A DNA stretch of 64,000 bases from an uncultured Verrucomicrobia subdivision 3 bacterium (GTDB lineage Bacteria; Verrucomicrobiota; Verrucomicrobiia; Limisphaerales; UBA11358), in assembly GCA_903861445.1 (NCBI GenBank), contig CAIOUK010000215.1:393-64392 (forward strand). Direction: 5' to 3'. Positions 10,615 to 62,564 of the stretch are shown here, piece after piece. The stretch's first letter is position 1. Each line of letters opens with the position of its first letter. The position numbers and the translations under genes are program-made. Below the pieces are notes generated by a model. The model worked only from the letters and a program-made list of their open reading frames with translations. It had not been told where the DNA came from and searched no databases.

Positions 10615-11397
10615 TTAATTTCCCGTCGCGCTGAACAGAACCATGTTCGTCCGTGTCACAGAATCAATCGGCACCACCAGTTGAATCGGCTGCGCCGTCC
10701 GGTTCGCGCCGGCCAGTTGGATTTCCACGCGCACGGCCAGCGGCAGATTCGTGTTCACCGTGGTCGGGTCGGTCGTGTCCCAGACTTCCTGCCATTGTGT
10801 GCCGTCGAAACAGGAAAATTTCACGCTTGCCACGCCGCTCAACAGGAGCTGGTTATCCACAAATGGCGTCGTGGTGGACAACAAATTTCTCAAGACGCTG
10901 CGATACAAATCACGCTGGCCGGAAACCGCGGTGGAATTTTTCAACTCATAGGTCACGCGCTGGATGTCCGCCCACGGCGCGTTCGCGCCCAACGCGCCGG
11001 TCGCCGTGAAAATCTCCGCCACCGCCGGCTCGCTGACGCCGGTGCTGGTGATGCCGGTGCTGGTGATGCCGGTGCCGACGCGGAAGCTGCCGGAGAGAAA
11101 TTTACTCGTGCCGTTGGTGGGCGTGACGACGCATTGCAAATCGCGGCGTAAAAACGTGAAGGCCTGATCCACCGGCGTCGCGGTGTCCACCACGTTGGTC
11201 GTCACCTCGCGCAGGCGCAGCGCGCTGAACAGCACGGCGCTGACCGCGACCAGCACGATGGCCGCCACGCCGATGGCGAGAATCATCTCGACCAGCGTGA
11301 AGGCACATTTCGAACGGCGAATGGCAAATGGCGAATCCGCCGCCACGCCGAGCGCGGCAGCCATTCGTAATTCGTAATTCGTAATTCGTAATTTCAT
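10615..11397 (-). CDS. GspJ-like minor pseudopilin (prepilin-type N-terminal methylation motif)
   Basis: Motif AFTLVEMILAIGVAAIVLVAV. ATG 11397 overlaps the upstream stop as ATGA. An alternative ATG at 11364 would leave the heptamer tract as a 30-nt spacer. The longer ORF in the track (start 11523) overlaps the upstream gene and is not favoured. Confidence 0.7.
   Translation of the reverse strand: MKLRITNYELRMAAALGVAADSPFAIRRSKCAFTLVEMILAIGVAAIVLVAVSAVLFSALRLREVTTNVVDTATPVDQAFTFLRRDLQCVVTPTNGTSKFLSGSFRVGTGITSTGITSTGVSEPAVAEIFTATGALGANAPWADIQRVTYELKNSTAVSGQRDLYRSVLRNLLSTTTPFVDNQLLLSGVASVKFSCFDGTQWQEVWDTTDPTTVNTNLPLAVRVEIQLAGANRTAQPIQLVVPIDSVTRTNMVLFSATGN
11363..11397. repeat. heptanucleotide tandem repeat: attcgta x4 plus one degenerate unit
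   Basis: Plus strand reads attcgtaattcgtaattcgtaattcgtaatttcat. On the coding strand it would encode KLRITNYELR of the prepilin leader if ATG 11397 is used. Confidence 0.95.
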
Positions 11398-11804
11398 TGC
11401 GTCATGTTCAAAGTTGTCGCGCCCGGCAGACTCGCCAGCGTGTCCAGCTTCACCGAATAATCTTTGCCCTGTGCGGAAAATTTCACTTCCGCCGTCACCA
11501 GTTGCATTGCGTCCTGCGGCCACGACTGGCTCGTGAGCGTCCAGCTAAAATTCTGTGCGCCCTCGCTTGTCGTGCCGCTCTGCGTGCCGTTGTTCCAGTT
11601 CGTCAGCACCAAACTCTCGTTCAAAATCCGGTCGGCCACGCGCACCGCCGCGCCCTTGCGCGCCGCGACCTCGCCCGCGAGGCTGGCGACGTGCATGGCT
11701 TCGATCGCCACCGGCACGACGATGGCCAGAAACAACAGCGCCACCATGACCTCGACCAGCGTGAAGGCGGGTGGACGCCTATTTTTCGCGGTCGTTAATC
11801 TCAT
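11394..11804 (-). CDS. GspI-like minor pseudopilin
   Basis: MRLTTAKNRRPPA/FTLVEVMVALLFLAIVVPVAI prepilin motif. The 136 aa size is typical of GspI. It lies between the H-like and J-like genes. Confidence 0.7.
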   Translation of the reverse strand: MRLTTAKNRRPPAFTLVEVMVALLFLAIVVPVAIEAMHVASLAGEVAARKGAAVRVADRILNESLVLTNWNNGTQSGTTSEGAQNFSWTLTSQSWPQDAMQLVTAEVKFSAQGKDYSVKLDTLASLPGATTLNMTQ

Positions 11805-16808: not shown

Positions 16809-17156
16809 ATGGACGATAAGTTTATTGTGAAAGTAGTGCTGGCCATCCTTTGCAGTTTCGTCCTCTTGTGGGGACAGGCACTGGCTTTGTCCGCGCCTAC
16901 TGCCAGTATCAGCATGACAAAACATGACTGCGGCTGTGGCGGCAAGATGAGCTGCTGTCAGGCCGCTTCTGCTGCGCAACCGACCGCCGCCACGGTGCCC
17001 GCCAGTTCGCAACATCAAATGGTCGCTCCGTTGCCGGTGCTTTTGGCTTGGATTTTGGGTGCCACCCCAACCGCACAAATTTCTCCCACCGTTCCCGCTT
17101 CCTTGTCCGCCGCCAGCGCGCCAATCTTCGCGCGCCACTGCGTTTGGCTCATCTGA
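16809..17156 (+). CDS. small exported Cys-rich protein (possible metal-binding accessory protein)
   Basis: N-terminal hydrophobic signal-like segment (KVVLAILCSFVLLWGQALA), then HDCGCGGKMSCCQ, then an Ala/Pro/Ser-rich tail. It lies directly upstream of cusB on the same strand. No recognisable family. Confidence 0.35.
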   Translation: MDDKFIVKVVLAILCSFVLLWGQALALSAPTASISMTKHDCGCGGKMSCCQAASAAQPTAATVPASSQHQMVAPLPVLLAWILGATPTAQISPTVPASLSAASAPIFARHCVWLI

Positions 17157-22540: not shown

Positions 22541-23872
22541 ATGACCAACCCCGCTCCCATCGCCGTCGTCGGGCTGGGCTATGTCGGGCTGCCTTTGAGT
22601 TTGCAATTCGCCCGCTCCGGCGTGCGAGTGTTGGGCTTGGACATTGATCCCGCCAAGGTGGCCGACCTCAATGCCGGGTGCAGCTACATCAGCCACATTC
22701 CGGCGGCTGAAATTCAGGCGCAGCGCGCGGCGGAACAATTCGAGGCGAGCACGGATTTTTCCCGCGTGCGCGAAACGCAGGCGGTGCTGATCTGCGTGCC
22801 AACGCCGCTGACGAAAAAACGTGAACCCGATTTATCTCACGTCCTCAATACCGCGCGCGCCATCGCGCCGCATCTGCGGCGGGACAAATCGGAAATCGGA
22901 AATCGGAAATCGGAAATTCCTTTGGTTGTGCTCGAATCCACCACCTATCCTGGCACGACCGAAGGCGAATTGCGCCGCGAACTGGAAACCGGCTCCGGGT
23001 TAGTAGCGGGCAAAGATTTTCATCTCGCTTATTCACCGGAACGCGAAGATCCCGGCCAGCCGGAACATCGGCTGGCGGACATTCCGAAAATTGTCGGCGG
23101 CCTCACGCCCGCCTGTCGCGAACGGGCCATAGCGCTTTATCAGCAAGCCATTCGCACGCTGGTGCCGGTTTCCTCGTGCCGCGCCGCCGAAGCCACCAAG
23201 CTGCTCGAAAATGTTTTTCGCAGCGTCAACATCGCCCTCGTCAACGAATTGAAGTCGGTTTACGGCGCGATGGACATTGATATTTGGGAGGTCATCGCCG
23301 CCGCGAAAACCAAGCCGTTTGGCTTCATGCCGTTTTATCCGGGGCCGGGACTCGGCGGTCATTGTCTTCCCATTGATCCGTTTTATCTGGCTTGGAAAGC
23401 GCGTGAATTTGGCCAGCCAACGCGCTTCATCGAACTTGCCGGTGAAATCAACACCGCCATGCCGCAGCAAGTTGTCGGTGTGGCAGTCGCCGCGCTGGCC
23501 GCGCAAAAAAAATCCGTGTCCGGCGCGCGCGTCCTGATTCTTGGTCTGGCTTACAAGGCCGATTTAGACGACGACCGCGAATCACCCGCCTACCGGCTGT
23601 TGGATTTGTTGAGCGAACGCGGCGCGACCGTGGCTTATCACGATCCGTATGTGTCGGTCATTCGCGCCACGCGCGAACATCCGCATCGGGCCGGTCAAGA
23701 ATCAGTGGCGTGGACGCGCGAAAATATTTCCAGCTTTGACGCCGTGGTCGTTGTCACCGCGCATCAGGCGGTCAATTATCAGGAACTCGCCGACTGGTGT
23801 CCGTGTATCGTGGACACGCGGAATGTCATGGCGAAAGTTCACACCCAACCTGGTCAAGTCTGGAAGGCATGA
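22541..23872 (+). CDS. nucleotide-sugar 6-dehydrogenase (UDP-GlcNAc/UDP-ManNAc dehydrogenase family)
   Basis: ATG 22541 (the ORF-track start 22508 is TTG). N-terminal Rossmann motif IAVVGLGYVGLPLSLQFARSG. Catalytic region FYPGPGLGGHCLPIDP. C-terminal UDP-binding domain VLILGLAYKADLDDDRESPA. Contains an in-frame heptamer-derived insert (see repeat 22886-22917). Confidence 0.9.
   Translation: MTNPAPIAVVGLGYVGLPLSLQFARSGVRVLGLDIDPAKVADLNAGCSYISHIPAAEIQAQRAAEQFEASTDFSRVRETQAVLICVPTPLTKKREPDLSHVLNTARAIAPHLRRDKSEIGNRKSEIPLVVLESTTYPGTTEGELRRELETGSGLVAGKDFHLAYSPEREDPGQPEHRLADIPKIVGGLTPACRERAIALYQQAIRTLVPVSSCRAAEATKLLENVFRSVNIALVNELKSVYGAMDIDIWEVIAAAKTKPFGFMPFYPGPGLGGHCLPIDPFYLAWKAREFGQPTRFIELAGEINTAMPQQVVGVAVAALAAQKKSVSGARVLILGLAYKADLDDDRESPAYRLLDLLSERGATVAYHDPYVSVIRATREHPHRAGQESVAWTRENISSFDAVVVVTAHQAVNYQELADWCPCIVDTRNVMAKVHTQPGQVWKA
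22886..22917. repeat. heptanucleotide tandem repeat aaatcgg x4.6 inside the dehydrogenase gene
   Basis: aaatcggaaatcggaaatcggaaatcggaaat. It encodes KSEIGNRKSEI between HLRRD and PLVVLESTTYPGTTE. Confidence 0.95.
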
Positions 23873-25388: not shown

Positions 25389-25512
25389 TCCTCGCAATAA
25401 GCTGAAATTCTCAGACCTGAGACCGGAAACGCGACCACTGATTTCCGACATTAAAAACCTCGATTTTGCAGTTTAAGTATTTCAGATTTCATCCTGTTTT
25501 TTTTGATTGTTT

Positions 25513-27942: not shown

Positions 27943-28076
27943 CTCCGCCGGACGGCTTTTTCCATAAGGAAGAGCATGAGAGCAATGGGGATGATTTTCA
28001 GGGTTTGCCAATCAGACTACGGATCGCTGACTAATGACTACTGACTTCCGCTTTCAGTCTTTCGTTTTTTAATTTT

Positions 28077-29129
28077 ATGAAAACGCTCCTCGTCACCGGC
28101 TCGTCCGGTCTCATCGGCTCCGAAGTCGTGGAATCCTTCAGTCGCGATGGCTGGCATATTCACGGCGTGGACAACAACATGCGCGCCGATTTCTTTGGCC
28201 CCGGCGGCGACACCCGCTGGAATCAGCAGCGGCTGATCGGCGCGCTTAAAAATTTTTCCCATCACGAGCTGGACATCCGCAATCGGCCCGCCGTGCTGGG
28301 GCTGCTGAATGAACTCAAGCCCACGGCCATCGTTCACACCGCCGCGCAGCCGAGCCACGACCTCGCCGCCAGCCGGCCATTCGATGACTTCGATGTGAAT
28401 GCTAACGGCACGCTCAACATGCTGGAAGCCGCGCGCCTCGCGTGTCCGGAATCACCGTTCGTCCACATGAGCACGAACAAGGTTTATGGCGATGCGCCCA
28501 ATCGCATCCAGCTCAAGGAACTCGCCCAACGCTGGGATTATGATGATGCTACCTACGCCGACGGCATCCGCGAAACTTTCACGATTGATCAAAGCAAGCA
28601 CAGCTTGTTCGGCGCGTCCAAAGTTGCCGCCGACGTGATGGTGCAGGAATACGGCCGTTATTTCGGCATGCCCACCTGCGCGTTGCGCGGCGGCTGTCTG
28701 ACCGGCCCAAATCACAGTGGCGTGGAACTGCACGGTTTCTTGAGCTACCTCATCAAGTGCAATCTCGAAGGCCGCACCTACAAGGTTTTCGGCTACAAAG
28801 GCAAGCAGGTGCGCGACAATATCCACAGCCACGACGTCGTGCAATTCATGCGCCGGTTCATCGAATCACCCCGCAAAGGCGAAGTCTATAACCTCGGCGG
28901 TGGCCGCGCGAATTCGGTTTCTATCCTCGAAGCCTTCGATCTTATTGCCTCCATCTCCGGCAAAAAGATGAGCCACGAATATGTGGATCAAAACCGCGCC
29001 GGCGACCATATCTGCTACATCTCTAACCTCGATAAGTTGAAAGCGCACTATCCCGGCTGGGGCATCACGAAGGATTTGAAGACGACGTTCGTCGAAATTC
29101 ACGATGCGTGGGTGAAAAGGAAAAGCTGA
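28077..29129 (+). CDS. NAD-dependent epimerase/dehydratase (extended SDR)
   Basis: [18 protein letters not shown] Rossmann motif, [17 protein letters not shown] (YxxxK), [12 protein letters not shown]. Overall it resembles the CDP-paratose-2-epimerase-like subgroup. Confidence 0.88.
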
Positions 29130-29187
29130 AATCAATTTCTATTTTCTACTTTCCAAATGTCTGCTTTGTCTTGCGATGTCTGATTTC

Positions 29188-30237: not shown

Positions 30238-30274
30238 CCGCAGATTTCAGCTTTCAGAATTTCTGTTTCAACTT

Positions 30275-31120
30275 ATGCATTTGATTCTTGAACCCGGACG
30301 CGCCGAGAAAAATTACTGGCGCGACCTCTGGCGCTATCGCGAGCTGTTCATTATTCTCGCCTGGCGCGACATCACCGTTCGCTACAAGCAAACAGTCATC
30401 GGCGTGGTGTGGGCGGTCATCCGGCCGTTGCTGACGACGATTGTGTTCACGGTGGTGTTTAGCAAGATTGCCAAATTATCCGCGCCGGGTGCCATCCCTT
30501 ATGCGCTGCTGGTGATGGCGGCGAATCTGCCCTGGCAGTTTTTTGCCACCGCCATGAGCGAGTCCAGCAACAGCCTGATCGGCAATGCCAACCTCATCTC
30601 CAAAATCTACTTTCCCCGACTCATCATCCCTGTGGGCTCCGTCATTACTAGCTTCGTGGATTTTTTAATCACCCTCGGTTTGATGGCAGCACTAATGATC
30701 TGGTTTCAGTTTGTTCCTGACTGGCGCTTATTTCTGCTCCCCGCTTTCATGATATTAGCTTTTGCCTCAGCTTTCGGCATCGGCCTGTGGCTGTGCGCGC
30801 TAAACGTGGAATACCGGGACTTTCGTTACATCGTGCCCTTCATTGTGCAATTTGGATTTTTCCTCTCGCCCGTGGGCTTCAGCACCACGCGCGTGCCGGA
30901 ACACTGGCTCTGGCACGGTTTTGATATTCCGGCGCGGTTGATCTACTCGCTTAATCCCATGGTGGGTGTCATTGAAGGCTTCCGCTGGAGCCTGTTGCGC
31001 GGTGAAAGCTCTTTTCAGGTTTCAGCTTTGAGCATTTCAGTTTTTGTGACGGTCGTGCTGTGCGCGAGCGGTATCTGGTATTTCCGAAAAATGGAACGCA
31101 CATTTGCCGACGTCATTTGA
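30275..31120 (+). CDS. wzm: ABC-2-type polysaccharide export permease (Wzm/KpsM/TagG family)
   Basis: N-terminal YRELFIILAWRDITVRYKQTVIGVVWAVIRPLLT signature and six TM segments, 281 aa. Confidence 0.9.
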   Translation: MHLILEPGRAEKNYWRDLWRYRELFIILAWRDITVRYKQTVIGVVWAVIRPLLTTIVFTVVFSKIAKLSAPGAIPYALLVMAANLPWQFFATAMSESSNSLIGNANLISKIYFPRLIIPVGSVITSFVDFLITLGLMAALMIWFQFVPDWRLFLLPAFMILAFASAFGIGLWLCALNVEYRDFRYIVPFIVQFGFFLSPVGFSTTRVPEHWLWHGFDIPARLIYSLNPMVGVIEGFRWSLLRGESSFQVSALSISVFVTVVLCASGIWYFRKMERTFADVI

Positions 31121-33095: not shown

Positions 33096-34378
33096 AAAAC
33101 GACGCGATCATATCAGTCGAAAACCTCGGTAAAAAATACCGCATCAGTCATCAGGCTGAACGGCAGCGCTACACCGCCTTGCGCGACGTGTTGGCCAACA
33201 AGGTCAAAGGCTTATTCCAAAATCGGAAATCGGAAATCGAAAATCAGAAATCGGTGGAGGATTTTTGGGCCTTGCAGGACGTTTCCTTTGAGGTCAAGCG
33301 CGGCGAAGTCGTTGGCATCATCGGGCGGAATGGCGCGGGCAAGAGCACGCTGCTGAAAATTCTGAGCCGCATCACCGAGCCGAGCACCGGCCGCGTGGAT
33401 TTGCGCGGGCGCGTGGCGAGCCTGTTGGAAGTCGGCACCGGATTTCATCCCGAACTGACCGGACGCGAAAATGTCTTTTTGAACGGTGCGATCCTGGGCA
33501 TGAGTCGGGCGGAGATCCGGAGGAAATTTGACGAGATCGTGGCCTTTGCCGAGGTGGAGAAGTTTTTGGACACACCGGTGAAACGCTACAGCAGCGGCAT
33601 GTATGTGCGCCTGGCCTTTGCCGTGGCCGCGCACCTGGAACCGGAAATCTTGATCGTGGACGAAGTGCTGGCGGTAGGTGATGCGCAGTTTCAGAAGAAA
33701 TGCCTAGGCAAGATGCAGGATGTCAGCAAAGGCGGTCGAACCGTGCTCTTTGTCAGTCACAACATGGTGGCCGTGCAAACCCTCTGCCACCGCGCCTTGT
33801 GGTTGCGCGATGGTAAGTTGATTGCGGATAGGGACGTGGCTCCAGTCGTTGCGGATTACCTGCGTGGATTCCACGGCCAAGACGACATCCAGCAATGGGA
33901 CGACCCCAAAACCGCGCCCGGCAACGACGCGCTCCGGATTAGAAGCGTCCGGCTGATTCCCGAAACCAGCGGGGATGACAATCTCATTTCCATGCAGACA
34001 CCGTTCCGGATTGAAACCGAATTCTGGGTGCTGGACGCCAGCCGCCAACTGCACTTCACCTATCATTTGCTCAATGACCAGGGCATCACGGTGTTGACTA
34101 CCGGCTTCCCGATGCAAGTGCATCCAGTGGGTCACCACAAGGCCGTCTGCCATTTGCCCGGCAACCTGCTCAACAGCGGCGGCTACTCCCTGAAATTGCT
34201 CGTGGTGGAGAATGGCAACAAGGTGACTTATATCCGTGAAAGCATTGCCAGTTTTACCGTCGTGGATATTGCGGAAAGAAAAGGTTCTTGGATGGGACGG
34301 GAACCGAGTGTTGTCCGGCCTATCTTAAATTGGAATGTGGAAACTTTAAAAACAAACAGTTCTTCTACGCATAATTAG
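33092..34378 (+). CDS. wzt: polysaccharide export ABC ATPase with a C-terminal glycan-binding-type domain (Wzt/TagH family)
   Basis: TTG start overlaps the upstream stop. Walker A GRNGAGKSTLLK, signature YSSGMYVRLAFA, Walker B ILIVDEVLAVGD, then a ~170 aa beta-rich C-terminal extension. Confidence 0.9.
   Translation: MKNDAIISVENLGKKYRISHQAERQRYTALRDVLANKVKGLFQNRKSEIENQKSVEDFWALQDVSFEVKRGEVVGIIGRNGAGKSTLLKILSRITEPSTGRVDLRGRVASLLEVGTGFHPELTGRENVFLNGAILGMSRAEIRRKFDEIVAFAEVEKFLDTPVKRYSSGMYVRLAFAVAAHLEPEILIVDEVLAVGDAQFQKKCLGKMQDVSKGGRTVLFVSHNMVAVQTLCHRALWLRDGKLIADRDVAPVVADYLRGFHGQDDIQQWDDPKTAPGNDALRIRSVRLIPETSGDDNLISMQTPFRIETEFWVLDASRQLHFTYHLLNDQGITVLTTGFPMQVHPVGHHKAVCHLPGNLLNSGGYSLKLLVVENGNKVTYIRESIASFTVVDIAERKGSWMGREPSVVRPILNWNVETLKTNSSSTHN
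33220..33254. repeat. heptanucleotide tandem repeat (aaatcgg, aaatcgg, aaatcga, aaatcag, aaatcgg) inside wzt
   Basis: It encodes NRKSEIENQKS just upstream of the Walker A region. The unit family is the same as in the dehydrogenase gene. Confidence 0.9.
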
Positions 34379-42611: not shown

Positions 42612-43634
42612 ATGAAAATCCTTTTGCACACCCGTTTTTATCCCAATGTCGGCGGGATTGAGACCGTGGCGTGGCTGCTGGCTCACGAATGGCAGCGGCA
42701 GGGCGAGCAGGTGACCGTGGTTTCCGATGTCGTTTGCCCACCAGAACAACGCAGAGAATTGCCATTTCCCGTCCATTATCGTCCCTCCATTAGATGCTGG
42801 TTGCAATTGATGCGGTCGGCGGATGTGTTTGTCCACATGAACCTCAGCTTGAAAGCGCTGTGGCCGGTATTGTTGGTGCCTCGGCCCTTGGTGGCGGTGC
42901 ATCATGGCTTCTACGTCGTGGATCGGACCGGGCGGCAGGATTGGCGGGAGCGGCTTAAACTCAAACTGATGGCTCGGGCCGCCAACATCGCAGTCAGCGA
43001 AGCCGTGGCCCGGCGGCTGCCGGTGCCGTGCGCGGTCATTCCCAACCCGGTGGATGTTTCCCTGTTTCAAACTAGCCAGACAACCGTGCGCAACCGGGAT
43101 TTGGTTTTTGTGGGCCGGCTTGTCTCGGACAAAGGTGCTGCTTTACTGGTTCAGGCTTTGGATCGGTTGCGCCAAAACGGATTGACGCCGCAATTGACCA
43201 TCATCGGCGACGGGCCGGAGCGGGCGGTTTTAGAACAACAGGTGGCGGCGTTGAAATTATCCAGCCAGATTCATTTCACCGGTTCGCAGCCGCAAGCGCA
43301 GGTGGCGCAACGGCTGCGGCAACATCAAATTCTGGTGGTGCCCTCGCTTTGGGAGGAACCGTTTGGGGTGGTGGCTTTGGAAGGTGCGGCGTGCGGTTGC
43401 GTGGTGCTGGGTTCGGATGGCGGCGGTTTGCCGGAGGCGATTGGGCCAACGGGAACTACTTTCAAGCGCGGCGAGGTGGATGATTTGGTTTTGAAATTAT
43501 CCCACTTGCTTCGACATCCTGAAGTATGGTCGTCCTATCGCGCAGCGGCTCCGGCGCATTGGGAACGCCATCAACCGGCGTTGATTGCCCGGCGCTATCT
43601 GGAAGTGTTCGGAAAACAAATTCTGGAACGCTGA
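42612..43634 (+). CDS. glycosyltransferase family 4
   Basis: ATG 42612 (MKILLHTRFYPNVGGIETVAWLLAHEW). Motifs VFVGRLVSDKGAALL and EEPFGVVALEGAACGCVVLGSDGGGLPE. Confidence 0.88.
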   Translation: MKILLHTRFYPNVGGIETVAWLLAHEWQRQGEQVTVVSDVVCPPEQRRELPFPVHYRPSIRCWLQLMRSADVFVHMNLSLKALWPVLLVPRPLVAVHHGFYVVDRTGRQDWRERLKLKLMARAANIAVSEAVARRLPVPCAVIPNPVDVSLFQTSQTTVRNRDLVFVGRLVSDKGAALLVQALDRLRQNGLTPQLTIIGDGPERAVLEQQVAALKLSSQIHFTGSQPQAQVAQRLRQHQILVVPSLWEEPFGVVALEGAACGCVVLGSDGGGLPEAIGPTGTTFKRGEVDDLVLKLSHLLRHPEVWSSYRAAAPAHWERHQPALIARRYLEVFGKQILER

Positions 43635-43640
43635 AATAAT

Positions 43641-43703
43641 GAAAGCTTGAGACCTGAGGCGGAAACCTGAAATTGGAAAAATGAAATCGGAAAGTGGATT
43701 AAC
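43641..43703. repeat. nine in-phase heptads in the spacer after the GT4 gene
   Basis: gaaagct tgagacc tgaggcg gaaacct gaaattg gaaaaat gaaatcg gaaagtg gattaac. Strict 7-nt phase with a GAAA-type core. Confidence 0.85.
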
Positions 43704-43750
43704 CCGGTGGTCTGCAGCCGGCGCGGGGTTGTTAAAGTAAAATAAAGCAC

Positions 43751-45136
43751 ATGAATTTGGAACGGAATAAAATTTCAGAACCAGATGAGGCAACCGGCAG
43801 GCGCGGGCGTCCGGTTCAGACCCGGCGGGAGCCGTTGGCCGATGAGAAAATAAAGCTGGCGTGGCTCGTGTTACTGACGGCCTTGGCGATGACGGTGCTG
43901 GAAGGGGCGTTCCGCAAATGGGTGTTCCCCCAGGGCGGAGCGGTTAAGTATCTGCTGTATTTTTCCAAGGACATCATTTTTGCGACCATTCTTTTCCTGC
44001 CCAAACGAAGCCAGCCCTCGCTGGCGTTAGAGAGTTTTTCTAACTGTCTGCTGCCCGGTTGTGTGCTGATCGGGCTGGGGGCGATCGCAAGTTGCCAGCA
44101 TGGGTTCAACCCAGTTGGTTCCATTTTAACCATCCGGGCACTGATCGTGCTGCCGGTCATCGCCTGGCTGGTGGTGCCCCGGTTGGCGGGTTTGCCCCTG
44201 CGCTGGGTGGCTGGGCTGCTGACTGTTTTTGTCCTGCTAAATTTTGCGTTGGGTATGGAGCAAAACCGCCTGCCCAAGGATCATTGGCTGAACCATTATG
44301 CGGATGCTGAAATGGAGGTGGTGGAATTGGAATCCGGGGTGCGCGCCACCGGCACCTTTGCCTACATCGCTGGATTAGGGGTCATTTCCACCGTGGGCAT
44401 TTGGGCGGGACTGGCGTTGATGAGCGTGGCCAGAAGCCAATGGCAGCGTCTGTGGGGGTGGGTGGCTCTGGTTGCGGGCTTTGGCTGCGGACTGGCCTCT
44501 ATCTCCCGTGCACCCATTGTCATCGCCGCCGCCATGGTGGCAGGGTGGCTGGTATCCTTTCGCGACAGTGTTTCGCTGCTGATTCGCGGGTTGGTCATGG
44601 GGCTGGTCTGTCTGGGGCTGGCGTTTGTGCTGGGGCTGGCTCCCGCCTTTTCCCATCTATGGCAGGGTTTGGAGGAACGGGCTAATCAGGGCAGCGATAG
44701 CTTTAACCAGCGGGCGTTTGGATCCTTTGGCGAAACCCTTGTCGCCCTGCAAGCCGCGCCGTTTGGCAATGGTTTTGGCACAGAACAGATCGGTGGGCAA
44801 TACTATGCCACCGGCGCGGCGGGCTTCAACCATTTTGAAAGCACCCTCCCCCGGCTGGTCATGGAAACTGGGCTTTTAGGCTTGATTGGCTATTTTGTCG
44901 TTGCTGCCGGTGTGATCATGGCTCTGCAAACCGCCAAACTCGGCGCGTCACCCGGCGCCAAGTCAGCCCTGCTGGCCACCCAATTATTTTTGGGAGTCAT
45001 GCTGTCCATGGGCGGCGTGATATTCAACCACACGGCTGCGGACTTCGTCTGGATTATTTTTGCGGCGGTCTTGGCAGGAGTGGGCAACGGGGAAAGCAGA
45101 AATTTGGAAAGTAGAAAACAGAGACCTGACCTCTGA
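43751..45136 (+). CDS. O-antigen ligase/polymerase-like (Wzy_C-type) polytopic membrane protein
   Basis: About 11 TM segments with a larger loop containing ISRAPIVIAAAMV and FGNGFGTEQIGG. This is the general layout of WaaL/Wzy-like proteins found in exosortase-linked EPS loci. The C-terminal tail GESRNLESRKQRPDL is read from a heptad tract. Confidence 0.6.
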   Translation: MNLERNKISEPDEATGRRGRPVQTRREPLADEKIKLAWLVLLTALAMTVLEGAFRKWVFPQGGAVKYLLYFSKDIIFATILFLPKRSQPSLALESFSNCLLPGCVLIGLGAIASCQHGFNPVGSILTIRALIVLPVIAWLVVPRLAGLPLRWVAGLLTVFVLLNFALGMEQNRLPKDHWLNHYADAEMEVVELESGVRATGTFAYIAGLGVISTVGIWAGLALMSVARSQWQRLWGWVALVAGFGCGLASISRAPIVIAAAMVAGWLVSFRDSVSLLIRGLVMGLVCLGLAFVLGLAPAFSHLWQGLEERANQGSDSFNQRAFGSFGETLVALQAAPFGNGFGTEQIGGQYYATGAAGFNHFESTLPRLVMETGLLGLIGYFVVAAGVIMALQTAKLGASPGAKSALLATQLFLGVMLSMGGVIFNHTAADFVWIIFAAVLAGVGNGESRNLESRKQRPDL

Positions 45137-45147
45137 CCACTGACCTC
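45092..45147. repeat. eight in-phase heptads spanning the stop codon of the ligase-like gene
   Basis: gaaagca gaaattt ggaaagt agaaaac agagacc tgacctc tgaccac tgacctc. Confidence 0.85.
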
Positions 45148-45161
45148 TCAAGTTTTTTCAT

Positions 45162-46412
45162 ATGAAAAAAACTTCCGTCATCGTTTCCTACAGCGGCGTG
45201 CATCAGGCGTTTCAGATTGCCTTGGCGACGCAGGAGGCCGGATTGCTGGACAGTTTTTATGGTTCCATTTTTGATGCACCCGGTAAATGGGGCCAGAAGT
45301 TGAGCCAAGTCATGGGAAAGGAAGCATTAAGCAACCGTCGGTGTGTCGGGTTGCCTCCAGAAAGATTGGTGGAATATCCGTGGCCGGAATTATTTGCGCG
45401 CCTCAAACGACTCACCGGTTGCGCCCGCCGGGATGAATGGCTTTGGACGGCCCGGCAATTTGACCGGCATGTCGCTCGGCTGATTGCCAAGAAAAACTGC
45501 CGCCTGTTAATCGGCGTTGAAAATTGCGCCGTCGAATCATTCCGTGTGGGCCGCGCGCGGGGCATGAAACTGGTTTATGATTGCCCGGGCTTTAACCCTG
45601 AAGTTTCCGATCAGGCGGCACTGCGCGCGGCCGTCGAGTGGCACTTGCCGCGTCCGCTGCCTTCGGATGCCCCCGCCATCAAGGTCAGCAAGGATCAGGA
45701 GTTGGCGCTGGCGGATTGCGTGCTGGTGTATTCGGAAGTGCATCAGCGGAGCTGGGCGCAACGCGGTGTGCCGACGGAAAAATTCGTCCGCATCCCCTTG
45801 TGGATTGAACCTGATTTGTGGCGGCCAAAGGTGGCAACGAGCAACCACCAAGTTCCATTGCGGGTGCTGTATGCCGGGCGCGGCACGTTGATGAAGGGCG
45901 TGCCTTACTTGTTGGAGGCTGTAAAAAAATGTGGCCGCCGGGTGCAACTGGATTGCGTTGGGAACCTTCAGTTGGAACTTCAGCCGCTGGCGGCGGGATT
46001 GACCAACGTCAAATTTCTCCCACCCGTGCCCAAATCCCAACTCCGAGAGGTTTATTGCAACCATGATGTGCTGGTTTTGCCCTCGCTGGGCGATTCCTTC
46101 GGGTTTGTGGCCTTGGAAGCGATGGCGTGCGGATTGCCGGTGGTGGTGACGGAGAATTGCGGGGTGCCAGTGCCCGATCCGGCGTGGCGTGTGCCCATCA
46201 TGGACAGCGCGGCGATTGCCCAGCGGCTGGAATACTACGCCACGAACCGCGAGGCATTGCAGCATGACGGACAAGTGGCACAACAGTTTGCCCGGCAATT
46301 CACGCCGGAACGCTATCGCGAACAAATCAAAAAGTTGCTAGGGAACCTGTTGAGTAAATCAGAAAGTGGAAAGTGGAAAACAGAAACGGGAATTAAAAAT
46401 ATCGAAAGTTGA
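45162..46412 (+). CDS. glycosyltransferase family 4
   Basis: LYAGRGTLMKGVPYLL and LGDSFGFVALEAMACGLPVVVTENCG. The C-terminal tail SKSESGKWKTETGIKNIES is read from a heptad tract. Confidence 0.85.
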   Translation: MKKTSVIVSYSGVHQAFQIALATQEAGLLDSFYGSIFDAPGKWGQKLSQVMGKEALSNRRCVGLPPERLVEYPWPELFARLKRLTGCARRDEWLWTARQFDRHVARLIAKKNCRLLIGVENCAVESFRVGRARGMKLVYDCPGFNPEVSDQAALRAAVEWHLPRPLPSDAPAIKVSKDQELALADCVLVYSEVHQRSWAQRGVPTEKFVRIPLWIEPDLWRPKVATSNHQVPLRVLYAGRGTLMKGVPYLLEAVKKCGRRVQLDCVGNLQLELQPLAAGLTNVKFLPPVPKSQLREVYCNHDVLVLPSLGDSFGFVALEAMACGLPVVVTENCGVPVPDPAWRVPIMDSAAIAQRLEYYATNREALQHDGQVAQQFARQFTPERYREQIKKLLGNLLSKSESGKWKTETGIKNIES

Positions 46413-46414
46413 AA
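46359..46414. repeat. eight in-phase NNNGAAA heptads spanning the GT4 stop codon
   Basis: tcagaaa gtggaaa gtggaaa acagaaa cgggaat taaaaat atcgaaa gttgaaa. gaaaacagaaa (46376-46386) is the perfect reverse complement of tttctgttttc (46444-46454), just before the next start codon. Confidence 0.9.
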
Positions 46415-46466
46415 CCCGATTCCATCTGCCTTTGTCCTTCATTTTTCTGTTTTCAAAATTTCAGTT

Positions 46467-47477
46467 TTGGCTGCCGTGATCAAAGTCGTTCATTTCCACC
46501 GCCGACCGATGGCCGGTTACACGAGCATCGAAAGGCTTTTTGACGGCCTGCGGCGGGCCATGCCGGAAGGCATCGAATGCCTGATGCATCTCTGTCCCCG
46601 TTTCAGCAAAGGCATCTGGCCGCGCCTGCTGAATATGATGGATGCCGCCCGGCATCAGGGAACGGTCAACCACATCACGGGCGATGTCCATTATCTCGCG
46701 CTGGCGCTGGCCAAGCGGCGCACCTTGCTGACCATTCACGATTGCGCCGCGCTGGAGCGGTTGCGCGGCTGGCGCCGGACGTTGCTGAAATTGTTCTGGT
46801 TCAGCTTGCCCATCTGGCGCTCCCAACTCGTGACGGTGATTTCTGAATCCACCCGCCGGGAATTGCTGCGGCATGTTCGTTGCGATGCCGCCAAAATCCG
46901 GGTGGTGCCCAACTGCGTGGGCGCTGATTTTGTGCCGGTGCCCAAGGCTTTCAATTCGGTGGAGCCGCAGATTCTGCATCTGGGGACAGGTGCCAACAAA
47001 AATCTGGAAAGATTAGCTAGGGCAATTAGTGGTCTGCCCTGCCGTTTGAATATTTTAGGTCAATTGAGTCAAGCACAGGAACAGACTTTGGCGGTAGCCA
47101 AAATTCGTTACACCAACCTGCCTCAGGCGACTGATGCCGAGGTGTTGCGCGCGTATGCCGAGTGCGACTTGGTGGCTTTTGTTTCCACCTACGAAGGGTT
47201 TGGCCTGCCCATCATCGAGGCCCAGGCCACGGGGCGGCCGGTCGTGACGAGTAAAATTTTATCCATGCCGGAAGTAGCCGGGAACGCCGCCTGTCTGGTG
47301 GATCCGTTGGACGTGGAATCCATCCGTCAAGGAATCCTTAAAGTCTGGCACGAGCCGGATTATCGCGCCCAGCTGGTCGCCGCCGGTTTTGAAAATGTAA
47401 AGCGGTTCACGCCCGCCGCCGTGGCGGCCCAATATGGAGCCATCTATCGCGAACTGGCGGATAAAGCCAAAATATGA
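46467..47477 (+). CDS. glycosyltransferase family 4
   Basis: TTG 46467 (or GTG 46476). Motifs ILHLGTGANKNLERL and STYEGFGLPIIEAQATGRPVVTSKILSMPEVAG. Confidence 0.85.
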   Translation: MAAVIKVVHFHRRPMAGYTSIERLFDGLRRAMPEGIECLMHLCPRFSKGIWPRLLNMMDAARHQGTVNHITGDVHYLALALAKRRTLLTIHDCAALERLRGWRRTLLKLFWFSLPIWRSQLVTVISESTRRELLRHVRCDAAKIRVVPNCVGADFVPVPKAFNSVEPQILHLGTGANKNLERLARAISGLPCRLNILGQLSQAQEQTLAVAKIRYTNLPQATDAEVLRAYAECDLVAFVSTYEGFGLPIIEAQATGRPVVTSKILSMPEVAGNAACLVDPLDVESIRQGILKVWHEPDYRAQLVAAGFENVKRFTPAAVAAQYGAIYRELADKAKI

Positions 47478-47480
47478 AAT

Positions 47481-47508
47481 CGGGAAAGTAGAAAGTAGAA
47501 ATGGGGAA
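47481..47508. repeat. four in-phase heptads after the GT4 stop
   Basis: cgggaaa gtagaaa gtagaaa tggggaa. The rest of the 127-nt spacer (to 47604) continues with T-rich units (gtttcag catttca gttttca aaatttt) running up to the next ATG. Confidence 0.85.
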
Positions 47509-47604
47509 TAACTTCCAGGCTGATTTTTTAATTCGGGTTAATTCGTGAAATTCGTGTCAAAGTAGAAATCAGTTTCAGCATTTCAGTTTTCAAAATTTTC
47601 TTTT

Positions 47605-48804
47605 ATGCACATCGCTCACGTTCAGGGAATCTTTTCGCCGGAACACGGCGGGCCCACCCAGTCGTTGAGCAATTATTGCCGGGGGCAGGTGGCGGCAGGT
47701 CATCGCGTGGCCGTTTGGACGTTGGAGGGCTATCCCGGCACTTCCCCGGCCCGCCGGCTGCCGTTGCCGGTGGAGATGCATGTGTTCCCGCTAGCGGCAC
47801 CAGCCCGGCTCGGACGCTCCCCCGCCATGCGCCGGGCATTGGCACAGGTTGAACCACCGGACGTCTATCATCTCCACGGAGCATGGCTGCGAGCCATGGC
47901 CTACGGCGCGAACGCGGCCCGTCAGCAACGGCGACCCTATGTGCTGGAAGTGATGGGTATGTATGAAGACTGGGCGCTCCGCCAAAAATGGCACCAAAAA
48001 CGGCTCGTGCGCTGGTGGTTTCAGGATCGGGTGCTGCGCGAGGCGAATTGTCTGCATGTGAATTCCCAGCAGGAAGCGGATGACTTACGCCGGCTGGGCT
48101 TCAAAGCGCCGGTGGCGGTGATCCCGGTGGGCGTGGATATGGAAAAAATAGAAGACCTGAAATCCGAAATCCGAAATCAGGAGTCAGCCATCGAAGTGCA
48201 ATTAAAGAATCATCCGTTCGTGTTGTTCCTCTCCCGCCTGCATTACAAGAAAGGCCTCGATTTGTTGATTCGGGCTTGGGCGGCAGTCAAAAAGTCAGAT
48301 GTCAGCGGTCAGCGGTCAGAATGGCTGCTGGCCATTGCGGGCACTGGCTCGCCGGAATATGTGCACGAGTGTCGCCAACTAGCCGAACAGTTGGGGATTG
48401 CTAAACAATGCCTTTGGCTGGGTCATGTGGACGAATGGCAAAAGAGTTGGTTGTATGCCCGCGCGCATTGCTACGTCCTGCCCACCAACAGCGAAAATTT
48501 TGGCAACACGGTCGCCGAAGCCCTGGCGCATGGCACGCCGGTCATCACGACCATCCACACTCCGTGGGCGGACTTGGAGAAGCATCGTTGCGGCTGGGTG
48601 GTGAATAATACCGTGGAGGCACTGCAACCAGCCCTGATGCAAGCCCTCGCGCTGGACGCCGCCAGCCGGCGCAACATGGGGGCGGCGGGCCAAAAGTGGG
48701 TGCGTGAGGCTTACTCATTGAAATCCGTGTTGAACAGCGTTGAAAGTGTTTATCATTGGGTGGCCGCCGGCGGGTCGCCGCCGGATTGCGTCCGTCTGGA
48801 TTAG
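47605..48804 (+). CDS. glycosyltransferase family 4
   Basis: [35 protein letters not shown] and [22 protein letters not shown]. Contains two short heptamer tracts in loop regions. Confidence 0.9.
48159..48179. repeat. heptanucleotide repeat gaaatcc x2 plus gaaatca inside the GT4 gene
   Basis: It encodes LKSEIRNQ in the inter-domain linker after VIPVGVD. Confidence 0.85.
48301..48320. repeat. heptanucleotide repeat gtcagcg x2 plus gtcaga inside the GT4 gene
   Basis: It encodes VSGQRSE in a loop before LLAIAGTG. Confidence 0.85.
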
Positions 48805-49977: not shown

Positions 49978-51600
49978 TTGAATTCAGCTTTCAAATCTCA
50001 ATTCGCAGTTTTTCGACTCGCGCTTTGCGCTTTGCCGCTGGTCTGGCTGTGGTGCGTTCTGCTCAATGACCTCCGCGTGGAATGGACCGTCAATCCGCAA
50101 TACGCCTACGGCTGGGCCGTGCCGTTCTTGTGTATTTTTCTCCTGCTCCGAAAAATTTTCCGACCTACAGCTGGAATCACTCCGCCGGCAACGGCCAACT
50201 TCCGGCTATCGCCGATTCTCTGCCAAATCATTTTCGGGTTGCTGGCGTTGCTCTATTTGCCCGCTCGTCTGATTCAGGAAGCCAATCCCGGCTGGCGGCT
50301 CGTGAGCTGGGCGCTGGCCATTTCAGTCATCGGCATCACTCTTTGCGTTCTGCGCTCGGCGCTTGGCGCTTCGCGCCTTCAGGTTTCAGGTTTCAGGTTT
50401 CAGGTTTCGGACTTTGCTTTCCCACTGTTTTTTTTCCTCGTGGCCGTGCCATGGCCGACGCTGATTGAAAATCCGTTGATCCAAACCCTGACTCACTTTG
50501 ATGTCCGCGCGACGTGTGATTTGGCCGGCTGGCTCGGCATTCCAGCCATCCCGCACGCCAACGTCATCGAGGTGGCGACGGGCTTGGTGGGCATCGACGA
50601 AGCGTGCAGCGGCATCCGTTCATTCCAAGCCACGCTGATGATTTCACTGTTCCTCGGTGAGTATTATGCCTTGGGACTTGCCCGTCGGCTATTCTGCGTG
50701 GGGTGCGGATTTTTACTGGCCTTGCTGCTCAATCTCGTCCGATTGCTGGTGCTGGTCTGGGTGGCGGCGCAGCGAGGGATTCCAGCCACGACCCGGTGGC
50801 ACGACCCGACGGGGGTGTTCATTTTGCTCGGTTGCTTCTTTGTGTTATGGGGCATTGGAGTCTGGCTGGCGCCAGCAAAAGCCAAGTTAGAAGTCAGCAG
50901 TCAGCAGCCAGCAACTGGAAGTCAAAACTCAAAACCCTCCGCCTCCGAACTTTCCGTTTTCCGTTTTCCGTTTTCTGCGGTGGCCTTAACCGGCTGGCTG
51001 CTGTGCGTGCAAGTGGGCGTGGAAGGCTGGTATCGGTGGCATGAAACCCGGTTGCCCGCCGCGACGGTTTGGCAAGTGGCGTGGCCGACCAACAATCCCA
51101 CTTTCACCGAGCGCGACATTCCGGTGACTTCGCGGCAAATCCTTCGGTTTGATGACGGGCGCAATGCCGGCTGGCAGGAGGATAATCTAAATTGGCAGGT
51201 GATTTTTCTCCACTGGCAACCCGGCCGTGCGGCCGTGCGGCTGGCGCAGAACCACACGCCCGAAGTTTGTCTGGCGGCCGTCGGCCATCAGCTTACCGGG
51301 GGTAGAGAATTGCAATTCCTCGCGGTCAACGGTTTGAAAATGCCGTTCCGTTTTTATCAACTCACCGATACGCCGCAGCCAGTCTTCGTGGCCTATTGCT
51401 TATGGAACGACCGGGCGGGTTCCCGCAAGTTTGAAACTAGCTCCCTGACGGCCAGCAGTCGAATCGCCGCCGTGCGAGCGGGTCAACGCAACGCCGGCCA
51501 ACGCTCACTGGAAATCGCCCTTACGGGTCTAAGCGATCTTGCTGCGGCCCAAACCGCCGTGCAACAGTTGCTCGAAAAAATCATTGTGCCCGAACGGTGA
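49978..51600 (+). CDS. exosortase fused to a C-terminal EpsI-family domain
   Basis: TTG start (uncertain). Polytopic N-terminal ~300 aa with the exosortase catalytic region GIDEACSGIRSFQATLMISLFLGE and NLVRLLVLVW. A low-complexity linker, then TM SAVALTGWLLCVQVGV and an EpsI-like domain with HTPEVCLAAVGH. Confidence 0.85.
   Translation: MNSAFKSQFAVFRLALCALPLVWLWCVLLNDLRVEWTVNPQYAYGWAVPFLCIFLLLRKIFRPTAGITPPATANFRLSPILCQIIFGLLALLYLPARLIQEANPGWRLVSWALAISVIGITLCVLRSALGASRLQVSGFRFQVSDFAFPLFFFLVAVPWPTLIENPLIQTLTHFDVRATCDLAGWLGIPAIPHANVIEVATGLVGIDEACSGIRSFQATLMISLFLGEYYALGLARRLFCVGCGFLLALLLNLVRLLVLVWVAAQRGIPATTRWHDPTGVFILLGCFFVLWGIGVWLAPAKAKLEVSSQQPATGSQNSKPSASELSVFRFPFSAVALTGWLLCVQVGVEGWYRWHETRLPAATVWQVAWPTNNPTFTERDIPVTSRQILRFDDGRNAGWQEDNLNWQVIFLHWQPGRAAVRLAQNHTPEVCLAAVGHQLTGGRELQFLAVNGLKMPFRFYQLTDTPQPVFVAYCLWNDRAGSRKFETSSLTASSRIAAVRAGQRNAGQRSLEIALTGLSDLAAAQTAVQQLLEKIIVPER
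50378..50410. repeat. heptanucleotide tandem repeat ttcaggt x4 plus a partial unit inside the exosortase gene
   Basis: ttcaggtttcaggtttcaggtttcaggtttcgg. It encodes LQVSGFRFQVSD in a loop before FPLFFFLVAVPWPT. Confidence 0.95.
50893..50976. repeat. block of heptad units forming the exosortase-EpsI linker
   Basis: gtcagca gtcagca gccagca ... gtcaaaa ctcaaaa ... ttccgtt ttccgtt ttccgtt ttctg. It encodes SSQQPATGSQNSKPSASELSVFRFPFS. Confidence 0.85.
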
Positions 51601-57544: not shown

Positions 57545-57572
57545 TACCGTAGCGTTGATACCGTAGCGTTGA
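57545..57572. repeat. perfect 14-bp tandem duplication taccgtagcgttga x2
   Basis: It lies 46 nt upstream of ATG 57618. Confidence 0.9.
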
Positions 57573-62501: not shown

Positions 62502-62536
62502 GCCGTCGGTGACAGTCCGCCGGCCGTTTGGACAAC

Positions 62537-62564
62537 AGCCTGACTTTTACAGCCTGACTTTTAC
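62537..62564. repeat. perfect 14-bp tandem duplication agcctgacttttac x2
   Basis: It lies 36 nt downstream of the giant ORF stop. The unit is two heptads of the ctgactt family seen in other spacers. Confidence 0.9.

Follow-up and report, generated by a model that had tools for sequence, protein, structure and literature searches.

Repeats built head to tail of seven-nucleotide units are known from several bacterial groups. They include the tandem heptanucleotides of Calothrix, the GGGAATC repeats of Xanthomonas, and the TAACTGA repeats that stand just upstream of starts without a Shine-Dalgarno sequence in Beggiatoaceae (PMC4692102, PMC4679880, PMC6344855). Among the periodic repeats of prokaryotic intergenic regions, tandem heptamers are the most abundant, and no clue to their function has been found (PMC6344855). 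Heptamers also occur in the intervening sequence (IVS) of the 23S rRNA of Coxiella burnetii. This IVS, of 428 nt, holds an open reading frame (ORF) for S23p, a four-helix bundle that forms a homopentamer; the inverted repeats at its ends make a 28-bp stem, and it is excised by RNase III (PMC4990558). Two to three tandem GACAGAT units lie directly upstream of the start codon, the 5′ RNase III cut falls at the first of them, and their number differs between strains (PMC4990558). The ORF of an rRNA IVS may decay or be lost, and short IVSs without a gene exist (PMC4990558, where the IVSs of Leptospira and Brucella are also cited). Here, we describe the heptad tracts of a 64,000-nt stretch of DNA, the window, which covers positions 393 to 64,392 of contig CAIOUK010000215.1 from an uncultured Verrucomicrobia subdivision 3 bacterium. 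On balance, we favor the view that these tracts are copies and decayed remnants of inverted heptanucleotide-repeat arms, spread through the lineage, of a family of IVS-like elements. A preliminary description of the window knew of no element class with such an organization; the repeats just cited, already known and abundant, provide one. As for a general link between heptamers and TIGR02436/S23p genes, we found no paper that makes it, in an incomplete coverage of the literature, and the precedent is that of a single organism, Coxiella.

The nine tracts named in the preliminary description are all found at their coordinates, and in 9/9 the best self-match is at a lag of 7 nt (identity 0.45–0.67; p from <0.0005 to 0.02 in 2000 within-tract shuffles). 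They had been called strictly periodic; the periodicity stands, and the strictness does not, since units drift to 6 or 8 nt and decay, with lag-7 identities no higher than those just given. In the whole window, which lies on a metagenome scaffold (ENA ERZ18623939, BUCK21-1) and has 56% G+C, exact lag-7 runs of at least 10 nt number 9, versus 0.1 in 20 dinucleotide shuffles. Such runs are also raised at periods 14 (6 runs) and 21 (4 runs), the remaining periods from 2 to 20 giving 0–2. Sliding windows of 21 nt with at least 16/21 matches number 128 at lag 7 versus 0–24 at other lags, GAAA, TTTC, and TCAG each show a sharp 7-nt spacing peak, and Tandem Repeats Finder (TRF) reports 18 period-7 arrays. 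As in the described tandem heptanucleotide repeats, head-to-tail 7-nt units thus occur above chance, and we count the units as mainly intergenic and lineage-specific. An assembly artefact, which had been considered at the outset, does not account for them: ENA and Logan assemblies made independently contain the same sequence, ungapped and with 5 mismatches at most. Positions 25–52 kb hold 13/17 tracts, so that the polysaccharide locus (25.5–54 kb: epimerases, wzm/wzt, GT2 and GT4 transferases, a Wzy-like protein, an exosortase, and acyltransferases) is enriched about three-fold. The tracts had been presented as a feature of the intergenic spacers. The spacers of the polysaccharide locus do carry them, but not exclusively, as about half of the tracts lie in frame within coding sequence.

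We call R the purine-rich arm made of GAAANNN units and Y its reverse complement, made of NNNTTTC units. R and Y tracts are the same dispersed repeat of about 34 nt on opposite strands, with the consensus aAAAGCaGAAATTTGGAAAGTAGAAAgcnGAaAt. Window positions 45093-45118 and the reverse complement of 29142-29167 are 96% identical over 26 nt (BLAST). The R element at 45089..45125 is 94% identical over 33 nt to positions 17062-17093 of the related locus L084, where the matching arm lies upstream of a four-helix-bundle gene, and 92% identical to positions 20975-20999 of locus L085; these sites in L084 and L085 are non-orthologous positions. Alignment of seven copies gave the consensus GAAAGCnGAAATTTGGAAAGTAGAAAACAGAAAT. 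In 1.3 Mb of related loci, the nhmmer profile of these copies matched only the window, L084, and L085 at E below 7, and it recovered an arm that was not in its seed, L084 17550-17583 (E=8.5e-3). A scan of JGI metagenomes with the pattern GAMATTTGGAAAGTWGAAA returned at least 120 matching stretches. Among the matches listed, bases outside the search pattern are conserved in the contigs with a GC content of at least 0.5 (n=54; aAAAGCa upstream and gcnGAaAt downstream) and are not conserved in those below 0.45 (n=46). The low-GC contigs serve as an internal control; therefore, the high-GC matches belong to a genuine family whose repeat spans five units, about 34 nt. Each arm is made of purines only or of pyrimidines only and is not palindromic.

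The distribution of the repeat is patchy rather than clade-wide, since period-7 tracts are nearly absent from 80 related loci (about 1.2 Mb; none in about 75/80). In the four closest relatives anchored on the DUF6288 gene (75–79% identity), the alignment is limited to the gene, and heptads are missing from the flanks. Two metagenome contigs are far richer in heptads than the window, L093 (8057-9580) and L204 (1040-5901), with 11–12 tracts per 10–13 kb and one GT4 gene with four in-frame tracts; the core families that recur in heptad-rich contigs are GAAANNN, GTCAGNN, GCGCNNN, and CGAACNN. A 2.3-kb contig from another sample, L003, joins a different upstream gene (contig positions 1-156, ending ...AKQIQTYLDKVNG*) to window 45093-47234. 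It is 100% identical to the window from 45093, a few bases from the 5′ edge of the 34-nt element. This may be a recombinant cassette junction or an assembler jump between repeat copies, and in either case the population must hold another copy of the element.

Many contigs that bear the element share, by tblastx, a small gene with L084 17120-17587. This gene encodes a protein of the family TIGR02436, “four helix bundle protein”, or PF05635, 23S_rRNA_IVP (70.8 bits versus a cut-off of 24), and in L084 it sits between an R arm and a Y arm. The element adjoins the gene in L084, L088, L176, L183, L194, L161, L093, L159, and L203; contigs beyond L084 with a TIGR02436/PF05635 gene at the arms number nine. 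In the contigs of the lineage, an R tract is followed by the ATG, about 118 codons, a second R tract, a Y tract, and the next gene. By synteny, the Y arm of the window at 29135-29170 corresponds in position to the arm that follows the four-helix-bundle gene in L084. In L207, from a different Verrucomicrobial population, both lag-7 tracts of 20 kb fall in the downstream flank of the gene, the upstream flank has a weaker GAAA-type run, and the minimum-energy and centroid structures alike show the ORF enclosed by paired R and Y arms. In each of the planctomycete loci L049 and L081, the single lag-7 tract of a 22-kb locus adjoins a homologue, and the units differ: AAGGGTG-like versus CACCCTT x7 in L049, and GCRGTTA versus GCTAAC in L081. 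The family of the four-helix-bundle protein has a great many members (at least 7,749 clusters at E <=1e-10; the best 120 are all 77–87% identical to the L084 protein), and many of its clusters lie on contigs shorter than 2 kb, as expected if repeat flanks break assemblies.

The relation between arms and gene extends to plasmids. A tblastn search of 72,556 plasmids gave 31 records, most of them cyanobacterial, and 14 were taken before any flank was seen; they come from Cyanobacteriota, Bacteroidota, Chloroflexota, Spirochaetota, and Bacillota. Inverted flanks abut the start and stop codons in 14/14 copies and are plainly heptadic in 13/14. The heptad units vary between copies, and the two arms of each copy remain complementary:

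Nostoc sp. C052 plasmid: AATTCGT x4 versus ACGAATT x4.
N. punctiforme plasmid: GGTCGGA versus TCCGACY.
Planktothrix plasmid: AATCCCC/AATCGTA versus ACGATTT/GGGATTT.
Euhalothece plasmid: ACCAGTG-type versus CACTGGT x13.
Plasmids of Bernardetia, Chondrinema, Chlorohelix, Treponema, and Monoglobus: further units.

The density of lag-7 tracts around a set of 18 genes is 6.67 per kb in the 150 nt next to the gene ends versus 0.15 per kb in the rest of the same loci, a 44-fold enrichment, and lags 6 and 8 are near zero. Cognate flanks of this set pair at -51.0 kcal/mol versus -27.5 for non-cognate flanks (p=1.2e-6). In the Nostoc cassette, the closing stem is about 40 bp long (z=-8.4). The plasmid genes are intercistronic, lying between cas2 and cas1, csx2 and cas1, drmD and pglX, hsdS and hsdR, and an RND (resistance-nodulation-division) adaptor and its permease.

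Defence operons are a repeated setting of the gene on plasmids (L219, L220, L221, L223, L224, L226, and L228). The neighbors are cas2/cas1, csx2/cas1, and DISARM drmD/BREX pglX, as well as helicase/N6-methylase, DUF1156/HEPN, and hsdS/hsdR pairs. In the Chlorohelix plasmid (L228), direct copies of about 100 nt, at about 870-990 and 1360-1480, flank the four-helix-bundle gene. The unit is an inverted heptad hairpin, GGATTTTAGATTTTAGATT ... AATCCAAAATCTAAAAT, and the gene seems to be set between whole hairpin elements or to have duplicated them.

The arms also keep an order with respect to genes. The preliminary description had seen a strand polarity, which is borne out on a larger sample: among adjacent tracts of opposite type, R precedes Y in 30 cases and Y precedes R in 2 (binomial p ~2e-7), and the order is alike on both strands, as “R after stops, Y before starts” predicts whatever the gene arrangement. 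Gene positions were taken from a codon-usage gene caller trained on the window, in place of naive stop-to-stop ORFs, which are misleading because the Y orientation has no stops. R copies on the sense strand have an upstream stop within about 45 nt (14 cases), and in about 18 cases a Y copy comes just before a start. Stops fall in all three frames of R units such as CTGAAAG and GTAGAAA; the Y orientation has none.

We base the following scheme on what was observed: a 7-nt periodicity, a 34-nt family common to the tracts, arms ordered R then Y, their association with a gene, and their covariation. A full-length element would consist of a TIGR02436/PF05635 gene between two arms that reach up to its start and stop codons and, when paired, make a long stem enclosing the ORF. 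Its anatomy would be that of an ORF-bearing 23S rRNA IVS, with its RNase III-cut stem, placed here between the cistrons of protein-coding operons. Judged from their sequence, the spacers of the window most likely carry gene-less, partly decayed arms, with an R arm set against a Y arm in six or more spacers of the polysaccharide locus (four clear R-then-Y pairs); short in-frame runs lie within probably tolerant protein loops. Such copies would derive from cassettes, through loss of the ORF or through spread of gene-less hairpins. The paired arms would be substrates of RNase III in the mRNA, and translation would filter their orientation: R arms, with stops in three frames, would be tolerated at 3′ ends, and Y arms, stop-free, U-rich, and unstructured, would be tolerated beside starts without a Shine-Dalgarno sequence.

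The likeness of the full-length elements to rRNA IVSs thus lies in the S23p/PF05635 ORF, the inverted repeats that enclose it and form a long stem, and the heptamers beside the start. Unlike rRNA IVSs, which occupy helix 25 or 45, they are placed in intercistronic spacers of polysaccharide loci and of plasmid cas, DISARM/BREX, and restriction-modification operons. The copies of the window differ further in having no ORF and in pairing weakly, and RNase III cleavage is demonstrated only for Coxiella and other rRNA IVSs. No rRNA or other Rfam family is matched in the window at gathering score, and eight element-rich loci, scanned at permissive thresholds, give only chance miRNA-like matches far below the gathering score. 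A known RNA of the Rfam type was dropped as an explanation.

The tracts of the window are the following:

11307..11399, minus strand: inverted heptad arms, ACGAATT x4 versus ATTCGCC-type, around a GC hairpin, at the 5′ end of a type II secretion system (T2SS) pseudopilin gene.
22880..22923, plus strand: (AAATCGG)x4.6, in frame in a UDP-sugar dehydrogenase (UGDH-like) gene; encodes KSEIGNRKSEI.
25400..25506, no strand assigned: R-then-Y spacer between a GFO/IDH/MocA-family oxidoreductase gene and a DUF6288 gene; the first 32 nt are 94% conserved in L084.
28027..28076, minus strand: TGACTNN and then TTTCAG-type heptads, up to ATG 28077; in L084 the cores are conserved and the variable positions differ.
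29105..29134, plus strand: short R-type run at the stop of the epimerase gene 28077-29129; part of an R-then-Y pair.
29135..29170, minus strand: Y arm that copies the 34-nt element in reverse complement, immediately before the epimerase-2 ATG 29176; nhmmer E=2.6e-5, seed member.
30241..30274, minus strand: Y-type tract TTTCAGC TTTCAGA ATTTCTG TTTCAAC, ending at the wzm ATG 30275.
31009..31045, plus strand: TTTCAGN heptads, in frame within the 3′ end of wzm.
33210..33256, plus strand: (AAATCGG)x5, in frame in the N-terminal region of wzt.
43641..43703, plus strand: R-type (GAAANNN) tract in the spacer between a GT4 gene (42612-43634) and the Wzy-like gene (43751-45136); lag-7 identity 0.50, p=0.0005.
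43658-43694, within the preceding tract: match to the family profile; nhmmer E=8e-4, the copy itself being in the seed alignment.
45089..45125, plus strand: best copy in the window of the ~34-nt R element, overlapping the 3′ end of the Wzy-like ORF and encoding its tail GESRNLESRKQRPDL; nhmmer E=8e-6, seed member.
45126..45148, plus strand: CTGACCT x3.3 heptamers leading up to ATG 45162; found by TRF and as a lag-7 tract.
46351..46387, plus strand: R arm, GAAAGTG x2.6, in the 3′ tail (SKSESGKWKTETGIKNIES) of the glycosyltransferase (GT) gene 45162-46412; nhmmer E=1.3e-3, seed member.
46436..46474, minus strand: Y arm (TTTC type) reaching the next GT start (GTG 46476 or ATG 46509) and holding the 11-nt complement of 46376-46386.
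47466..47511, plus strand: R arm, GAAAGTA x2.6, that starts at the stop codon 47475-47477; nhmmer E=1.6e-3, seed member; lag-7 identity 0.67.
47560..47604, minus strand: Y arm up to ATG 47605; pairs with the R arm in the minimum-energy fold, with a z of only -1.0.
48150..48323, plus strand: GAAATCC x2.9 and GTCAGCG x2.7, two in-frame tracts in the GT4 gene 47605-48804.
50339..50983, plus strand: GCGCTTG, TTCAGGT x4.4, AGTCAGC, and TTTCCGT x3.6, four in-frame tracts in the exosortase gene.

Two particulars of the preliminary description can be read from these lines: the exact 11-nt complement of 46376-46386, located at 46444-46454, was verified, and the two ORF tails it named are present. The minus-strand nhmmer match of the Y arm at 46436..46474 is weak (E=2). 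On the minus strand, 11295-11410 folds as four 5-bp helices with 2x2 internal loops between them and a GC-hairpin cap, with a 7-nt period (z=-1.4). In the same region, window 11363-11393 (ATTCGTA x4.4) has the unit that flanks the four-helix-bundle gene of the Nostoc sp. C052 plasmid (L217 1433-1478); convergence or horizontal spread are possible.

The heptad insert in the UGDH loop is found neither in PDB homologues nor in relatives of 428–432 aa, where the loop is short. The DNA of the insert recurs unchanged in L084 and L085, in orthologues with protein identities of 92% and 73%, and L206 has the empty site. The loop, which follows APHL, is an insertion hot spot among proteins P0001-P0025: it holds nothing (QKGA/QRGT), KSEIGNRKSEI, or the decayed SETGNQKSEI or SQIANRKSEI. 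Other UGDH relatives have unrelated inserts of the same length, and the longer insert of P0014 contains FQVSGF, the peptide of TTTCAGG heptads, which occurs also in the exosortase of the window. The best named relatives of the window are metagenome-assembled genomes of freshwater Verrucomicrobiota, and the UGDH homologues include Limisphaera. At the other end of the window, perfect 14-nt tandem duplications at 57545-57572 and 62535-62564 (TACCGTAGCGTTGA x2 and ACAGCCTGACTTTT x2.1), with a period of twice 7, flank a 4.9-kb Laminin_G/SASA/TIG gene. The polysaccharide locus itself is bracketed by paralogous DUF6288 + HEAT + PDZ proteins at 25507-27942 and 54490-56913 (about 64% DNA identity in parts).

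Several results weigh against our view that the tracts of the window are arms of IVS-like elements. The window has no TIGR02436 gene (tblastn; hmmsearch of six-frame ORFs), and so the descent of its copies from cassettes is drawn from a relative and from similarity between short, low-complexity arms. Tracts that adjoin such a gene number 0/17 in the window and 0/11 in L085. The units AAATCGG, GTCAGCG, GCGCTTG, and CTGACCT have no demonstrated link to the family. Eight spacers of the window, when folded, have no excess of stability over shuffles (z -1.0 to +1.1), and in 30 gene-less R/Y pairs the cognate arms pair no better than non-cognate ones (p=0.24); the three R/Y pairs of the window rank among the worst with respect to non-cognate pairs. 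As for mobility, the one protein looked up, P0205, is in an identical context in all 24 contigs. Finally, the direction could be the opposite one, in which the ORF would have been inserted into pre-existing hairpins. The intercistronic RNA structures suggested in the preliminary description are thus strongly supported for full-length elements elsewhere and not for the window's own spacers, which fold like shuffles and whose arms pair weakly. Given this lack of excess stability, we dropped the idea of a selected intercistronic hairpin for the window. Among element contigs generally, 12/55 fold with a z below -2, the best at -7.7, with long R:Y stems. Sites resembling intrinsic terminators and sigma-70 promoters are at chance level, at 21 versus 18.3 and 7 versus 5.4 expected, with no instance within the spacers, and an integron attC site was dropped, there being no GTTRRRY core and no integrase.

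What, then, could the tracts be, if not arms of such elements? Ordinary heptanucleotide microsatellites, made by local replication slippage in a lineage prone to 7-nt slippage and without relation to any cassette, are an explanation that we regard as unlikely. In its favor, perfect short arrays of many units occur across spacers and coding sequence, the in-frame ones in variable loops, and heptamers are over-represented among bacterial simple repeats, with polymerase slippage suggested as the reason (PMC4692102). Most tracts, in the window and in L085, have no four-helix-bundle gene nearby, and the closest relatives by DUF6288 have no heptads in the same spacers. Slippage, however, leaves unexplained a 34-nt composite conserved in more than 50 contigs, non-orthologous copies that are 92–96% identical and occur in both orientations, the 30:2 order, the 44-fold excess of lag-7 tracts at the gene ends of a single family, and arms that covary. 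Slippage and elements may coexist: simple slippage in a lineage prone to heptamers may have produced the in-frame arrays and the units AAATCGG, GTCAGCG, and GCGCTTG. The repeats of Calothrix PCC 7601 and the GGGAATC or GGGGAYT repeats of Xanthomonas and Nostoc resemble ours in being lineage-specific, enriched in intergenic regions, and sometimes present as inverted pairs; close relatives differ in the length and sequence of these repeats, whose function is not known (Rehm 2015, PMC4692102). Unlike ours, their G-rich units have been studied as G-quadruplex formers, and no cargo gene has been reported for them (PMC4692102). In the present data, heptamers of Nostoc, Anabaena, and Planktothrix flank four-helix-bundle genes.

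The relation of the arms to starts and stops suggests a second explanation, that they punctuate translation: R arms would be three-frame stop pads behind genes, Y arms would be unstructured, U-rich loading sites (of the ribosomal protein S1 or Csp type) for starts without a Shine-Dalgarno sequence, and the periodicity would be incidental. The preliminary description had stated that the genes concerned have no Shine-Dalgarno sequence, and in fact GGAG, GAGG, and AGGA are not found upstream of them. The Y arms end 0–30 nt before the starts at 28077, 29176, 30275, 46476, and 47605, with no Shine-Dalgarno motif there. The same holds for the window at large: 29/30 starts checked, a few of them with approximate coordinates, have no GGAG, GAGG, or AGGA at -20 to -4, the exception being an AGGA before 39817. 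This is, therefore, a property of the organism and not of the heptad spacers alone, and the organism appears, from its sequence, to initiate translation largely without Shine-Dalgarno sequences. The position of R arms at stops or no more than about 45 nt from them (14) and of Y arms just before starts (about 18), together with spacers no more structured than shuffles, would suit punctuation. There is also a parallel in TAACTGA before starts without a Shine-Dalgarno sequence (PMC4679880), and a preprint on Nostoc reports heptamer repeats that affect translation of recF and recO (10.1101/2022.06.06.494920).

Punctuation nevertheless seems quite improbable to us. A single 26-nt sequence and its exact reverse complement would serve the two supposed functions, which points to an origin at the DNA or duplex level. 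It is the R arm, not the Y arm, that abuts the start codon of the four-helix-bundle gene, the order is reversed in Anabaena, and most genes of the window without a Shine-Dalgarno sequence carry no tract. The TAACTGA direct repeats of Beggiatoaceae, Cyanobacteria, and Bacteroidetes consist of a single unit, usually in the stop-containing orientation upstream of starts, with one inverted set reported (MacGregor 2015, PMC4679880). Like them, the tracts described here are tandem heptamers, mostly intergenic, near starts without a Shine-Dalgarno sequence, with one orientation that stops in all frames and another that can be translated, with occasional in-frame copies in ORFs, and with a patchy taxonomic distribution. 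They differ in having many units with a common core, a conserved 34-nt composite, an obligate R-then-Y pairing, and a recurrent cargo gene. In the window, the units are not TAACTGA; they are GAAANNN, NNNTTTC, CTGACNN, AAATCGG, and others.

We consider it very unlikely that the arms are mobile hairpins similar to REPs (repetitive extragenic palindromes), REPINs (doublets of REPs), or miniature inverted-repeat transposable elements (MITEs), moved by a transposase in trans and with no link to the four-helix-bundle gene. REP units are imperfect palindromes tied to the RAYT (REP-associated tyrosine) transposase; in Proteobacteria, they occur as inverted doublets and form mRNA hairpins between cistrons. 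Our repeats, like REPs, bacterial interspersed mosaic elements (BIMEs), and REPINs, are short, dispersed, intergenic, present in both orientations, and often arranged as inverted doublets, and folding in 12/55 contigs is consistent with hairpins. The consensus holds GTAG or GTTG, and the junction in L003 is at the edge of an element. Unlike REPs, the arms are purine-only, heptad-built, and non-palindromic, and no RAYT or transposase gene is associated with them, the recurrent neighbor being the four-helix-bundle gene. No transposase-like Pfam match was found among 28 ORFs of the window that were scanned. A MITE was rejected as well, as the loops vary in length and sequence and there is neither a target-site duplication at one empty/filled pair (L206) nor a clean insertion boundary.

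It is scarcely credible that the tracts are contingency repeats that switch polysaccharide genes by phase variation in unit number, an option raised in the preliminary description: a surface-polysaccharide locus, a unit not divisible by 3, the presence of some tracts in coding sequence, and the strain variation in Coxiella (PMC4990558) would suit it, but three independent assemblies show no indels or length differences (assembly consensus, window versus L001-L003), the arrays are of low copy number (2.6–5 units) and mostly imperfect, and the UGDH-like array does not differ in length or sequence in orthologues with protein identities of 92% and 73%.

Returning to the IVS-like element, which protein might act on its arms? 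The preliminary description had thought of landing pads for an RNA-binding protein, since many units contain GGA. CsrA-binding sites present GGA in hairpin loops near translation starts; GGA is indeed common in R units, yet R units sit after stops, not at starts. The pentameric four-helix-bundle protein is a candidate for such a role. PF05635 resembles Avd of diversity-generating retroelements (PMC10053308), and Avd, a pentameric barrel of basic character, binds an RNA stem-loop and holds flipped-out bases between its protomers (10.1101/2023.10.23.563531). The cargo protein is like Avd in its family; unlike in the Avd system, no reverse transcriptase, template repeat, or variable repeat is seen near the genes studied here. 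It is tempting to go further and propose, tentatively and as an idea more doubtful than not, that tandem heptamers are largely the arms or debris of one widespread S23p/Avd-like element that colonizes rRNA helices and intercistronic spacers. The period of 7 would come from recognition by a homopentamer, and the spacers of the window would be orphan binding or processing sites for a protein whose gene lies elsewhere in the genome. Homopentamer recognition would fit the five units of the Verrucomicrobial arm, the 5-bp helices at 11307-11399, and the flipped-out bases that Avd holds between five protomers.

The heptamer families of cyanobacteria, Xanthomonas, and Beggiatoaceae have been described separately and remain unexplained, and a regularity that holds in six phyla offers a testable lead. 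In the six phyla sampled, TIGR02436/PF05635 genes lie between covarying inverted heptamer arrays, which is the anatomy of the Coxiella RNase III substrate. The same elements would account for several oddities of annotation, namely C-terminal tails encoded by the element, in-frame insertions in loops, and breaks of metagenome contigs at repeats. If the relation proves true across whole genomes, rRNA intervening sequences, heptamer repeats, and standalone Avd-like proteins would be tied together, and both a candidate binding protein and a candidate nuclease would be at hand.

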